A DNA stretch of 64,000 nt from Candidatus Latescibacterota bacterium. Its GTDB lineage: Bacteria > Latescibacterota > UBA2968. Below, piece by piece: positions 7,897-10,891 of the stretch. The DNA lies in assembly GCA_965207885.1 (NCBI GenBank), contig OZ242311.1:4448001-4512000 (forward strand). The letters run 5' to 3'. Numbering within the stretch: the first letter of the stretch is position 1; each line of letters starts with the position of its first letter. A program made the position numbers and the translations under genes. The notes beneath the pieces were generated by a model, which saw only the letters and a list, made by a program, of their open reading frames with translations, ran no database searches and was not told the DNA's origin.

Positions 7897-8673
7897 ATGA
7901 ACACGGGTTCCGGAGCATTTAATTTTGATCGCGTCAAAGTATGGTATCATTGTCCCCAGGACCATCTTACCGACCTGCCAGTAGTATTTGCCCTGCACGG
8001 GGCCTCGCGCAATGCCAGCACCTATCGCGACACCTGGGCCAGCCATGCCGATACGCACGGATTTTTGTTATTGGCCCCGGAGTTTTCACAGGATAATTAC
8101 CCCGATGAAACAACATTTAACCTGGGCAATGTATTTGCCGAAGATGGAACGCGAAATGCCATAGCCGATTGGTCTTTTCAAATAATTGAAGGCATTTTTG
8201 ACCACGTCAAAAAACGAGTGGGACTCCGAGCATCGTCCTACGGGTTTTATGGGCATTCGGCGGGCAGCCAGTTTGTACACCGATTTTTGTACTTCATGCC
8301 TCAGTCACATGCACATATCTTTATAGCAGCCAACGCCGGGTGGTACACTATGCCCACATTCAAACAGACCTATCCCTATGGATTGGCCGAATCGGGTCTG
8401 ACTGTCGCGGATTTGAAACGATCACTGAGCCAGCGGATTGTGGTACTCCTGGGAACTGATGATGTAGATGTGAACCACCCCAAATTGAGACGCACGCCGC
8501 AGGCGATGATGCAGGGCGCACACCGCTTTGAGCGCGGCCACACATTTTTTGAAACGGCAAAACGAGAAGCCGAAGCACTCAATGTGCCATTTAACTGGCA
8601 GTTGGACACAGTACCCAACGTGGGACACAACAATGCGGGAATGGCAAAAGTGGGTGTTGCGTATTTGGTGTGA
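7897..8673 (+). CDS. Alpha/beta hydrolase (esterase/depolymerase-like)
   Basis: ALHGASR, GHSAGSQFVHR, AANAGWY, VGH. Confidence 0.8.
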   Translation: MNTGSGAFNFDRVKVWYHCPQDHLTDLPVVFALHGASRNASTYRDTWASHADTHGFLLLAPEFSQDNYPDETTFNLGNVFAEDGTRNAIADWSFQIIEGIFDHVKKRVGLRASSYGFYGHSAGSQFVHRFLYFMPQSHAHIFIAANAGWYTMPTFKQTYPYGLAESGLTVADLKRSLSQRIVVLLGTDDVDVNHPKLRRTPQAMMQGAHRFERGHTFFETAKREAEALNVPFNWQLDTVPNVGHNNAGMAKVGVAYLV

Positions 8674-8805
8674 TACGCAAAAAAAAACGCGAGTGAGCGG
8701 TGTACAACTGGCCGACTCTCAGGCCAGTTCATTTGAGCGTTTTTCGCAGATGAACGCAAATAAAAAAGAGGACTGGGGGCTGGATAGGCTAATCTTGCTT
8801 ATAAA

Positions 8806-8843
8806 TGAAAGAATGGCCGCGATCCCTGTTATCGCGGCCATTT
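8806..8843 (-). terminator. Strong hairpin terminator closing the 9149->8810 transcript (possibly bidirectional)
   Basis: AATGGCCGCGAT-7nt-ATCGCGGCCATT perfect 12-bp stem; T-rich run follows on the minus strand. Confidence 0.75.
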
Positions 8844-8859
8844 ATGTACTACAAGTCAT
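8842..8859 (-). CDS. Micro-ORF MTCST (5 aa)
   Basis: TAGGAGGTTCC immediately before ATG. Confidence 0.3.
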   Translation of the reverse strand: MTCST

Positions 8860-8872
8860 GGAACCTCCTATG

Positions 8873-8929
8873 TCAGCCGATCGGGGGAGAGGTCCTAACA
8901 CCCGACCGCTGGATACAGATTGGTGGCAT
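8873..8929 (-). CDS. Micro-ORF MPPICIQRSGVRTSPPIG (18 aa), possible leader peptide
   Basis: GAGGAGGTTACT immediately before ATG. Confidence 0.35.
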   Translation of the reverse strand: MPPICIQRSGVRTSPPIG

Positions 8930-9155
8930 AGTAACCTCCTCTTGTGAGTGCTGCGGCCCGTCACACCCACTCGCGGTCCAATGAACTCTCTATGCTCTGT
9001 GTGTTTGCGCGAAGGTCTAAAGAACGGTATCCAGGTCGGGTTACCGAATGGCGGCAACGAGTCCGACGAAAAAAAAGACCAGATGTAAAAACACACGGGC
9101 GAGAACCTTTTCGAGCGGAATGCCGCCTGACGATTCATATCGCCTGTTATTTTGG

Positions 9156-9185
9156 AATATAACCCGATAAATTGCGGGATGTCAA
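9156..9185 (-). promoter_or_regulatory. sigma70-type promoter for the candidate RNA
   Basis: TTGACA-18-TATATT on the minus strand. Confidence 0.65.
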
Positions 9186-9295
9186 GACCTAATTTGAAAT
9201 TTTTTTATAGGTATCTTTAGATAAGATTATATACTATATATCAGTACCCAATCCGCGCTAATCATTTTAGCGCCATAGAACAGGAGAACACAGAT

Positions 9296-10891
9296 ATGGG
9301 ATATGGCAGACGAGAAGACCCGAAATTGTTTAACGATGAACAAATGCGTCAATATATCGCAGATGGATACGTGGTTTTTGAGCCAGATGTCCCCGATGAC
9401 CTGCACGAGACAATTCGGCAAAAACTGCAATTTATGGTCGATGAAGAATTCAATTACGGCAACAACGTGCTGCCTCGCGTCCCCGAGATGGATCGCATCT
9501 TAAACAGCCCAGAAGTACAGGGCGCGCTCATCAGCGTACTCGGCCCGGGATATATCGAACACCCGCATCGGTTTTGTCACTACATCTCGCCCGACGCAAC
9601 ACAAAGAACACTCGCCCAAAATTGTCATCAAGATTCTTACACCCCCCTGGGACGCCCGCGCCAACACTACCCGCGCTTTGCGCGCATCATGTACTATCCA
9701 CAGGACTCACCCGTTGAAATCGGTCCCACACACGCGATTCCCGGCACACAGTATCACAGGCGATTGACCGATCAAGACCGCCAGAACGCCATTCCAATAG
9801 CCGGTAAAGCTGGCACAGTATCAATCACACACTTTGATATAGGACACGCCGCAGGCATCAACGCGCTTCGCCAACCCCGGCATATGATAAAATTCATTTA
9901 CGTGCGCGCCGAAGAACCGACCGCCCCCTCGTGGGATTGTCGGGATCACATCTGGCGAAATCCCGAAACATACAAAACACCGCATGATCTGCACCTGGCC
10001 TGGTCGCATATATGGGATTGGCTATGTGGCAAAAAGGATCAATACGAAAGTTTTCGCGCATCAGCCCCCGCAACTTGCAGATTGGAAGACCTGCATCACG
10101 ACAACCTGGACAAACGACTCGCAGCCCTGCACTCAATAGCCGCGACAAAAAACACCGATGCAATTCCCGCGCTGATTCGCAAGCTCAATACCGACGACCA
10201 GTGGACGCGCCTCGCGGCTATATATACTCTGGGCGCAATAGGCCAACCCGCAGTACAGCCCCTGATAGAAACACTCTTAGACACTGCCACACACAAAGAC
10301 GAGAACCCCGTACCCACATCCTGGAATGAAGGCGCCATATCGATGGAAGATGCTGTCCATGCCCTCGTTGCCATAGGCACACCTTCACTGGATCCTCTAA
10401 TTGGACTGCTGGAAAACTCAAGCGAATGGGCACGTATCAACGCGGCCTTCGCGCTCGGTGAAATGGATACTCTGGCGGCACAAGCCGTACCTGCACTCAC
10501 GCGCTGTCTGGACGATGCGTCTCACTGCGTTGTGCGAACAGCCACAGATGCACTGGGCAGCATTCGGAAAGATAGCGAAGAATTTATACCCGTACTCGAG
10601 CGACTGCTCAAAGTGGGACGCCCTGAATGGCAAATGCCCGACCGACGCGACTGGACGCCCTATGACCAGGTCCGCGTCAACGCCGCAATGGCATTTACGC
10701 GCCTGGGCAAAGACGCCACATCTGCCGAAGCTCTTCTACTCGATACATTATCCGACCCCAACGGTCACGTCGCTGCATTTGCCCTGGAAGCATTGCGGCG
10801 GATAGGCACGTCCTCGGCAATGGATGGCGTCATGGAATATCTGATGACCCGACGGTGGGATGAAAGCATAGAGAAAGGAAGACTATTTTGA
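9296..10891 (+). CDS. Phytanoyl-CoA dioxygenase (PhyH)-like domain fused to HEAT/PBS-lyase repeats
   Basis: HQD...H facial triad, YYPQD..GPT..IPGTQY; C-terminal repeats such as RLAAIYTLGAIG, RINAAFALGEM; CAGGAG RBS. Confidence 0.85.
   Translation: MGYGRREDPKLFNDEQMRQYIADGYVVFEPDVPDDLHETIRQKLQFMVDEEFNYGNNVLPRVPEMDRILNSPEVQGALISVLGPGYIEHPHRFCHYISPDATQRTLAQNCHQDSYTPLGRPRQHYPRFARIMYYPQDSPVEIGPTHAIPGTQYHRRLTDQDRQNAIPIAGKAGTVSITHFDIGHAAGINALRQPRHMIKFIYVRAEEPTAPSWDCRDHIWRNPETYKTPHDLHLAWSHIWDWLCGKKDQYESFRASAPATCRLEDLHHDNLDKRLAALHSIAATKNTDAIPALIRKLNTDDQWTRLAAIYTLGAIGQPAVQPLIETLLDTATHKDENPVPTSWNEGAISMEDAVHALVAIGTPSLDPLIGLLENSSEWARINAAFALGEMDTLAAQAVPALTRCLDDASHCVVRTATDALGSIRKDSEEFIPVLERLLKVGRPEWQMPDRRDWTPYDQVRVNAAMAFTRLGKDATSAEALLLDTLSDPNGHVAAFALEALRRIGTSSAMDGVMEYLMTRRWDESIEKGRLF

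Follow-up and report, generated by a model that had tools for sequence, protein, structure and literature searches.

A conserved structured RNA with a Met-Pro-Pro mini-ORF in Candidatus Latescibacterota, possibly an attenuator-type device kept as an abundant transcript without a gene

The S-adenosylmethionine (SAM)-riboswitch transcripts SreA and SreB of Listeria are riboswitch RNAs acting in trans. The pyrL leader of pyrBI senses uridine triphosphate via polymerase pausing and is not known to have a large structured sensor domain. The Pro-Pro step of translation depends on elongation factor P (EF-P) and on prolyl-tRNA. In one study, a polyproline motif before the pyrL terminator raises termination when EF-P is missing (PMC5021804). 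Another describes the 264-nucleotide (nt) leader of mgtA as a Mg2+-sensing RNA with a proline-codon open reading frame (ORF), mgtL, in which translation and EF-P decide on an attenuator stem-loop; the efficiency of mgtL translation, dependent on prolyl-tRNA and EF-P, sets this stem-loop and the continuation of transcription (PMC6460261). The element considered here lies on the minus strand, at 8806..9185, of a 64,000-nt stretch of Candidatus Latescibacterota DNA (assembly GCA_965207885.1, contig OZ242311.1, positions 4,448,001 to 4,512,000). This whole stretch is referred to as the window and supplies the coordinates used below. The element consists of a promoter, a long structured RNA carrying a ribosome-binding site (RBS) and mini-ORFs, and an intrinsic terminator, and had been picked out in a preliminary description made from the sequence alone.

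The leaders of mgtA, with mgtL, and of mgtCBR, with mgtP, resemble this RNA in their long structured leader, their short proline ORF led by a Shine-Dalgarno (SD) sequence and their combination of RNA and ribosome sensors. The RNA is unlike mgtA in that it has no sequence or structure match in Rfam, its prolines are consecutive and at the N-terminus, its stop codon abuts an intrinsic terminator and the controlled gene, where present, is a CBS-pair gene, with the window copy controlling none; the phylum is also another one. With pyrL it shares a leader ORF reaching an intrinsic terminator which a translating ribosome can block, whereas pyrL always precedes its operon. As in SreA and SreB, a cis sensor and its terminator would form a short terminated transcript with a role of its own, but those RNAs still lie before genes, and here a translated frame (predicted) is part of the device. 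The 6S and housekeeping RNAs have in common with it abundance, a single copy and an own strong promoter and terminator, but differ in architecture. The reading preferred here, to which a probability of about 0.5 is given, is that of a new translation-coupled attenuator-type regulatory RNA which has been kept as an abundant transcript without a gene and whose nearest parallel in logic is the Salmonella mgtA/mgtL leader. The type of device (RNA sensor, proline mini-ORF and attenuation) is known, while the family, the N-terminal Met-Pro-Pro and the conserved, hyper-abundant gene-less form are new.

The preliminary description had called the RNA undescribed, and this was upheld. Rfam 15 gave 0 matches at gathering thresholds over the whole window and 0 at E<=10 over 8600-9400, and nine homologous loci gave only sub-threshold chance matches outside the element. 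A full-text literature search, which did not extend to subscription-journal papers and supplements, returned no description of this RNA.

By its sequence the RNA can be divided into three parts, namely a covarying 5′ domain, a strong RBS and start codon within a small hairpin, and one or two mini-ORFs. The features are as follows:

9156..9185, minus strand: sigma-70-type promoter, TTGACA (9185-9180), 18-nt spacer and TATATT (9161-9156), agreeing with the consensus at 11 of 12 positions
8806..9149, minus strand: transcript of about 335 nt, 5′ end at about 9142-9149, 3′ end past the terminator at about 8812-8806
9129..9144, minus strand: 5′-terminal hairpin GGCGAU/AUCGUC (helix 1)
8953..9126, minus strand: conserved 5′ domain, a long irregular stem of about 175 nt, from single-sequence minimum free energy (MFE) folding and covariation
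9126-9122/8957-8953, minus strand: P0, GCGGC/GCCGC
9121-9119 opposite 8966-8958, minus strand: asymmetric internal loop, AUU opposite GUGUGACGG
9118-9112/8973-8967, minus strand: P1a, CCGCUCG/CGAGUGG
9111-9108, minus strand: A-rich bulge
9107-9103/8979-8975, minus strand: P1b, GGUUC/GGACC
9100-9089/9006-8994, minus strand: P2b and P2, containing 9089-9096/8999-9006
9080-9076/9018-9014, minus strand: P3, GGUCU/AGACC
9067-9035 and 9032-9021, minus strand: tip hairpins
8915..8945, minus strand: RBS-enclosing hairpin (helix 10), flanks ACA-AGA/UCUGU, GGAGG opposite CCACC, A-A mismatch, start codon in or next to the loop
8934..8941, minus strand: SD site 1, GAGGAGGU, 4 nt before the start codon
8873..8929, minus strand: mini-ORF 1, AUG CCA CCA ... 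UGA, MPPICIQRSGVRTSPPIG, 18 amino acids (aa), open in 21 of 21 congeners
8874..8911, minus strand: hairpin H, GCGGUCGGG/CCCGAUCG, inside mini-ORF 1 (helix 11)
8861..8895, minus strand: anti-SD GGACCUCU (8895-8888, loop of H) with the second SD AGGAGGUUC (8869-8861; helix 12)
8842..8859, minus strand: mini-ORF 2, AUG ACU UGU AGU ACA UAA (MTCST), the last stop base being the first base of the terminator stem
8802..8842, minus strand: intrinsic terminator (helix 13), a stem of 12 base pairs (bp; 7 GC, 8842..8812), a 7-nt loop and then CUUUCAUUUA

The promoter and the 12-bp terminator stem were both found by scanning the minus strand, and both micro-ORFs can be read in the sequence, as had been reported. 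Both promoter hexamers are unchanged in 21 of 21 members of the genus, and near-consensus promoters also lie upstream of homologues in genera g6, g8, g9 and g10. Transcription was checked by placing contigs from four metatranscriptome runs on 8300-9700; the sequence-bearing runs are mostly labelled as sponge or marine metagenomes. In run X17 the summed contig depth was 24,560 over 8817-8863, 285,380 over 8864-8910, 579,915-601,366 over 8911-9051, 267,325 over 9052-9098 and 99,936 over 9099-9145, with 0 over 9146-9380 and 9-70 over 8300-8816. Within the limits of contig depth given below, the flanks serve as a silent control and the covered block matches the unit from promoter to terminator, so that the absence of a transcript, which would have told against the preliminary description, is ruled out. 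The 537 pieces from X17 are spread over identity classes (138 at >=99%, 193 at 95-99%, 188 at 90-95% and 18 below 90%), from which many strain variants contribute to the depth. Contig ends joined to adapter at 9142 and 8820 give a weak hint on the transcript ends, which contigs cannot fix. In runs X15, X16 and X18 one contig (depth 380-474), stopping at 9098-9103, spans the neighbouring hydrolase-like gene together with the element and is uninformative on the transcript.

The element is single-copy in its genome, a single contig of 6.23 Mb. By BLAST, 20 of 20 congeneric genomes have it over its whole length (378-380 nt; 70-96% identity), and 25 of 61 relatives gave some match at E<=0.01. Members outside the genus were found via weak BLAST matches, two sequence patterns and one covariance model, and include stand-alone copies in g6 (G025, G028), g8 (G042, G032), g9 (G035, G047), g10 (G050), g11 (G052) and g2 (G021). 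There are about 30 stand-alone copies, distributed over seven genera and two families, versus 5 in cis to a gene. Among the genomes searched with these queries, none of the 15 from g7 and none from outside the order yielded a genuine member, and two collection-wide contig scans were uninformative on presence in other phyla. Judged from these matches, the family is found in one order of Candidatus Latescibacterota only and is sponge-associated. The view that this is a stand-alone structured RNA is borne out by its own promoter and terminator, by the convergent orientation of the next gene at the loci inspected, by covariation and by a discrete, abundant transcript.

Several further matches were set aside. 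The pattern GAGGAGG-N3-6-RTGCCACC occurred in 53 of 168 genomes over the phylum, the inspected matches outside the order (L057-L073, L075, L076) all being coding; within the order, L027, L030 and L036 also fell inside coding sequence. The pattern GAGTTGNGGGCC..GGAGG occurred in 32 of 132 genomes over the class, and the inspected matches in family f3 and the one in g7 were coding, as were both g7 matches obtained by BLAST of the g9 copy into its family. A scan of the whole genome collection returned at least 119 stretches, mostly chance matches in unrelated phyla. The terminator hairpin GGCCGCGAU..AUCGCGGCC (8812-8842) was itself observed in at least 119 unrelated metagenome contigs (loci L196-L314). 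When these were searched with an nhmmer profile of the genus, nearly all matched the hairpin alone and no clear new member was obtained; among the metagenome matches listed, one locus (L292) matches about 100 positions of the profile. Since this hairpin is common in unrelated contigs, its conservation across genera may reflect a generally favoured terminator and not a specific binding site.

The single-sequence MFE structure of the 5′ domain in this genome is exactly the stem listed above, and it contains the nested helices 9112-9118/8967-8973, 9089-9096/8999-9006 and GGUCU/AGACC which had been proposed earlier and which are kept in the genus. The same architecture was given by MFE for members of g6, g9, g11, g8 and g3 and for a compact copy in g5, with 3 of the 10 folded sequences (the most distant congener G011, G025 and G029) lacking the fold. 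In the unfitted alignment of the genus (A1) the full 96-pair structure was 96.4% paired, versus 34-46% with the partners slid. The 5′-terminal hairpin was paired in 93.7% of cells and showed one-sided changes only. Across genera the helices stay in place while their sequences change: P0 is GCGAC/GUCGC in g6; P1a is CCAUCCA/UGGAUGG in g11, CGUCCG/CGGACG in g3 and GCGUCCG/CGGGCGU in g8; P1b is GAUUC/GAAUC in g6 and GGACCC/GGGGUC in g3; and P3 is GGGUUUUC/GAAAACCC in g6 and both UCGCUUUC/GAAAGCGA and UUCACCC/GGGUGAA in g3.

R1, a covariance model of 177 positions and 50 pairs that rests solely on the 21 sequences of the genus, gave 56-60 bits in g6, 37.4 for the compact g5 copy (L033), 35 and 24 in g3, 31-32 in g9, 24.5 in g10, 22 in g11 and 18 and 8 in g8 (the latter at E of about 1), while its g2 scores were 18 (stand-alone copy) and 11 (CBS leader, E 0.14). 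In a 16-sequence alignment fitted to R1, 93.6% of cells pair and 34 of the 50 pairs change on both sides, with a covariation score of 0.273 against 0.154 +/- 0.009 for shuffles (0 of 500 reaching it) and 0.04-0.07 for slid partners. In the compact g5 copy the domain is reduced to P0, P1a and P1b with the loop and the bulge, enclosing a 21-nt insert, and these parts thus mark its core. The domain looks like a binding site for a ligand or factor. A conserved, covarying structured domain is a riboswitch feature; as to a position upstream of coherent genes, the cis copies precede one CBS-pair gene family and the stand-alone copies are far more numerous. By eye, and against consensus sequences, no likeness to a K-turn, a T-box sequence or a tetraloop receptor could be fitted. 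A hairpin GAGUG/CACUC placed after the domain by whole-RNA MFE was also rejected, its 5′ arm being invariant and its 3′ arm freely variable. With an MFE of -119.8 kcal/mol for the whole RNA and a z of -2.13, stability by itself is only modest and unremarkable; z for the 5′ domain of ten family members ranged from +1.2 to -2.4. It was also observed that hairpins like the tip of the domain (GUUGC.GCCA.UCGGCAAC, about 11 bits with R1) lie near the CBS loci of two distant congeners (L047 189-213, L380 3043-3067), which may be chance.

The RBS and the start of mini-ORF 1 recur across the family. Each of the 32 members listed with the domain has a start codon, AUG, GUG (g6) or UUG (g2), preceded at 3-6 nt by a GGAGG core, and in the genus AAGAGGAGGT is nearly invariant. 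Codons 2-3 are CCA CCA, CCA CCU or CCA CCG, with CCG CCU in G050 and CCC CCC in the CBS leader of G001, so that every difference seen is a synonymous third-position change and Pro-Pro is retained. Within the genus a 3-nt indel in mini-ORF 1 is in frame and its UGA is invariant. In g1, g6 and g10 the last mini-ORF ends with its stop codon against the terminator, and in g9, g11, g3 and the CBS leaders this stop lies in the terminator loop or 5′ arm. Past residue 5-6 the peptides diverge in sequence and length (12-32 aa), and the two g8 species differ from each other by a frameshift inside the ORF though their nucleotides are similar. As start, Pro-Pro, frame and stop are kept while the peptide diverges, the act of translation and not its product looks to be under selection, as expected of leader peptides; the patterns in start codon, Pro-Pro, frame and stop-terminator placement are hard to explain without ribosomes.

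The hairpin around the RBS is 99.5% paired in the genus, with one compensation of AGA/UCU to UGA/UCA. By eye, its flanking helix recurs with other sequences as CCUG/CAGG in g9 and g11, ACAG/CUGU in G022 (g3) and GUAA/UUAC in g8, and also in g2 and g10. Hairpin H, the local hairpin 8901-8911/8874-8885 of the preliminary description, is present and conserved (96.1% paired); a hairpin of other sequence stands at its position in g8, g9 and g11, and its equivalent in g3 is an intrinsic terminator. The anti-SD at 8888-8895 does pair with the second AGGAGGUU, as had been proposed: this helix is 94.6% paired, with two pairs changed on both sides in the genus, and g6 has a different complementary pair, AUCUCC or GUCUCC with GGAGAU. 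Mini-ORF 2 has an in-frame start in 17 of 21 congeners (in G014 with a 3-nt deletion), and its equivalents, each reaching as far as the terminator, are MCCHI and MSCHT (5 aa) in g6 and MISF in g10. The terminator is 99.2% paired, with U-A replaced by C-G in 5 of 21. Two features of an attenuator are therefore seen in the window copy itself, namely a short SD-led ORF in the leader (SD 8941-8934, AUG 8929) and a terminator placed where a ribosome on an ORF would interfere (UAA overlapping the first stem base, with a similar placement in other genera). The third, a regulated gene directly downstream, is found for the g3, g2 and g5 homologues only.

The proposal of a multi-state switch fared less well. 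Its 15-bp long-range helix (9027-9041/8900-8916) is present here and 89.5% paired in the genus, but is broken in the four most distant congeners and was not found by eye in g6 or g8; three of its pairs change on both sides, partly through a one-column alignment shift, and it is lineage-specific at best. The crossing helix 9121-9127/9050-9056 forms 7 bp here, with one pair holding in 4 of 21 congeners and no covariation, and it also competes with the better-supported P0 and tip hairpin. A switch made from these two helices is not supported by the comparison.

The motif SD-AUG-CCA-CCN occurs a second time in the genome, at contig position 6,001,341, followed by a terminator and then by a protein of 147 aa with two CBS domains. 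This CBS leader of the same genus, and that of g6, has no 5′ domain and carries an extra mini-ORF, M(L)P(K/R)PD(S/T)-stop, with synonymous variation. At this locus (G000 6,001,155-6,001,912, L368) are observed TTGACA..TATATT, MLPKPDS-stop, a second SD with AUG CCA CCA, an intrinsic terminator and the CBS-pair gene. Its first mini-ORF has counterparts in g6 and g5 (M(P/H)RPDT-stop) that differ by synonymous codons, and is therefore probably translated. In two genomes each of g3 and g2, the full domain, the Met-Pro-Pro ORF and a hairpin precede the CBS gene, the hairpin having a U-tract and acting as a terminator in g3 and lacking a clear U-tract in g2. In g5 the compact domain lies before a separate mini-ORF, MHRPDT-stop, with the Met-Pro-Pro ORF and terminator about 200 nt downstream. 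The Met-Pro-Pro frame in CBS leaders is only 6-8 codons long. This arrangement suggests that the device is a cis-regulator in some lineages. The attenuator idea of the preliminary description was in this respect on target, the g3 and g2 homologues being 5′ leaders of a CBS-pair gene with the hairpin after Met-Pro-Pro as terminator. A full-length gene behind homologues, which had been named as a sign against the preliminary interpretation, is in spirit what some lineages have; the stand-alone form is the commoner.

A single protein query at E<=1e-25 detected a CBS orthologue in 13 of 20 congeners and in neither of the 2 g9 genomes; the RNA is present in every one of them. As the RNA is present where this orthologue was not found, the stand-alone RNA is independent of that gene, and the idea of a sponge for the CBS protein is weakened by the same genomes (7 of 20 congeners, 2 of 2 in g9). 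It was also observed that the CBS gene at L368 is followed, at about 6,001,915-6,001,990, by an SD-led ORF of 14 codons with a GUG start, VSEELPEKKVFGCW, which extends into a terminator hairpin; micro-ORFs of this kind, led by an SD and closing at a terminator, may recur in this genome.

For the preferred reading, that of a translation-coupled attenuator-type RNA, the following mechanism is envisaged, in which we infer translation of the mini-ORFs, the attenuation logic and action in trans. A ribosome initiating at mini-ORF 1 and passing Pro-Pro would unwind H, and the second SD would thereby come free of the anti-SD. The foot of the terminator would then be occupied, and the terminator melted, by this ribosome or by another on mini-ORF 2. 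Should initiation fail, the SD being masked, possibly via the 5′ domain, H and the terminator would form; they would likewise form if the ribosome stalled at Met-Pro-Pro, because a ribosome stalled there would not quite reach H. What is set in this way would be, for cis copies, the read-through into the CBS gene and, for the stand-alone copy, the 3′ end, stability or conformation of the RNA. The terminated form, with a hairpin at both ends, is presumably the abundant species. As there is no gene behind the RNA in this genus, its most likely output is the RNA as such, acting in trans by way of its amount, conformation or 3′ end. The sequence offers two candidate alternative pairings: GGCCGC, from the 3′ strand of P0, could pair with GCGGUC in the 5′ arm of H, and AUGCC(A/G)CC could be covered by the 5′ GGCGGCAU, perfectly over six bases in G050.

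A number of observations weigh against this reading. There is no downstream gene here for an attenuator to control; the gene 3′ of the RNA is convergent in all five congener loci examined, and the identity of the downstream gene differs among lineages. For an antiterminator there are only the candidate pairings P0/H and GGCGGCAU/start, read by eye in the sequence. The SD-enclosing helix was not seen by eye in g6 or in the g3 member G029, and mini-ORF 2 has no start codon in G016, G018 and G011 and a different frame in G009. Without fitting, changes on both sides are seen for only 7 of the 96 pairs in the genus alignment, versus 1-5 in slid controls, and the 16-sequence alignment, being fitted to the model, leans towards structure and has its interior helices aligned for 9-12 of 16 sequences only. 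After codon 5, about 10 non-synonymous differences stand against 2 synonymous ones (counted by eye in the genus), so that only the N-terminus, frame and stop look constrained, and even this constraint could partly reflect RNA pairing (CCACC with GGAGG, AUGCC(A/G)CC with the 5′ GGCGGCAU). Finally, contig depth sums strains and organisms and is a poor measure of expression, and it is very high in one run only.

Two other explanations are possible, each clearly less probable than the attenuator-type reading. One takes the RNA as a gene-less global reporter of translation status, acting by ribosome trapping or by reporting EF-P and prolyl-tRNA without control of a neighbour, or else as a mostly orphan new riboswitch aptamer. 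In such an RNA the strong RBS and immediate Met-Pro-Pro would be coupled to a ligand- or factor-binding domain, and the sufficiency of EF-P and prolyl-tRNA in slow-growing sponge symbionts would be reported via its own folding, termination or stability. The other, equally tentative, is a trans-acting non-coding RNA, a riboswitch-like sensor or protein sponge whose loop and bulge bind a small molecule or protein and whose SD and AUG go untranslated. The 5′ domain, with its sequence-conserved asymmetric loop, is indeed the most conserved and covarying part, and the compact copy L033 keeps its core alone; the abundance is housekeeping-like, both ends carry hairpins, and the RNA occurs also in genomes in which the CBS gene was not detected. 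Only two members have a codon 2 other than CCA, a hint of some constraint on CCACC at the nucleotide level, yet starts are only AUG, GUG or UUG, Pro-Pro is also reached via CCG CCU and CCC CCC, the frame survives an indel and stops fall at terminators, none of which an untranslated frame would readily account for.

It is doubtful that the RNA is the messenger of a functional micro-protein (18 aa here, 12-32 aa elsewhere) with the long structured 5′ region as its regulatory untranslated region. The strong SD, the conserved start, an ORF open in every member, a very high transcript level and an N-terminal pattern M-P-P-(G/D/I)-x-(L/F/Y) recurring across genera would fit such a protein. Purifying selection along the whole peptide was, however, not found, only Met-Pro-Pro and about three further residues recurring; the free divergence past residue 5-6, the frameshift in g8, the excess of non-synonymous differences and the frames of 6-8 codons in CBS leaders speak against it. 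A 98-aa ORF at 8842-9138 on the minus strand, which spans the element and is absent from the preliminary description, was rejected as a gene, having no Pfam match, a replaced AUG in distant congeners and a frame broken by 1-nt indels. A type I toxin-antitoxin system, with a hydrophobic membrane peptide and an overlapping antisense RNA, is not indicated either, MPPICIQRSGVRTSPPIG not being hydrophobic and a promoter scan showing no antisense promoter.

An orphaned attenuator, transcribed but functionless after gene duplication or loss, is very improbable: although all parts of the g3 and g2 CBS leader are there with no gene behind, the RNA has been retained whole by 20 of 20 congeners, its promoter being invariant, stands alone in seven genera and two families, keeps its paired positions pairing and is very highly expressed, and the loss of a regulated gene, as suggested in the preliminary description, is not the best account of a gene-less form which is the commoner one and is also present in 7 congeners without a detected CBS orthologue. 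Just as improbable is a divergent 6S-like housekeeping RNA binding RNA polymerase, for which the abundance, single copy, stand-alone position, near-consensus promoter, rod of about 175 nt and negative RF00013 scan of the genome would speak, but in which the roughly 180-nt rod closed by both ends with a large central bubble is missing: the rod is not closed by the RNA ends, a large central bubble open on both sides is absent (1-2 nt stand opposite 14-19 nt), some 150 nt carrying SD sites, ORFs and hairpins lie 3′ of the rod, RF00013 does not match the RNA, and the RNA was not found in the g7 genomes or outside the order. RNase P RNA, transfer-messenger RNA and signal recognition particle RNA were detected elsewhere in the genome; the scan with RF00013 gave no 6S RNA, which means little as the control for this model gives a match in only 5 of 14 known genomes.

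The element is flanked by the following genes:

7897-8673, plus strand: hydrolase-like gene, 258 aa, convergent with the element
9296-10891, plus strand: PhyH+HEAT gene, divergent from the element

The PhyH+HEAT gene adjoins the element in 17 of 21 loci and the full hydrolase gene does so in 16 of 21, the four most distant congeners having other neighbour genes. In the contigs of X15, X16 and X18 the 134 nt between the hydrolase gene and the terminator (8673-8808) are swapped for 56 other letters, so that this spacer is a region of indels which varies between strains. In g6 and g10 a pdxA-like gene, convergent with the RNA, comes next downstream. G042 (g8, L028) and G021 (g2, L357), from genera of two different families, each have a sigma-70-family gene in the same orientation as the stand-alone RNA and 220-450 nt downstream.

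The depth in X17, a sponge metatranscriptome, exceeds that of the flanks by three to four orders of magnitude, and yet this RNA would go unannotated. As a folded sensor, Pro-Pro frame and terminator which occur both as a gene leader and as a free transcript, the family would allow a test of how cis-regulatory leaders turn into trans-acting RNAs. It would also allow Pro-Pro translation, which is EF-P-dependent, to be tested as a physiological signal outside the enterobacteria, and it adds a candidate riboswitch-like domain from a candidate phylum without a cultured model.

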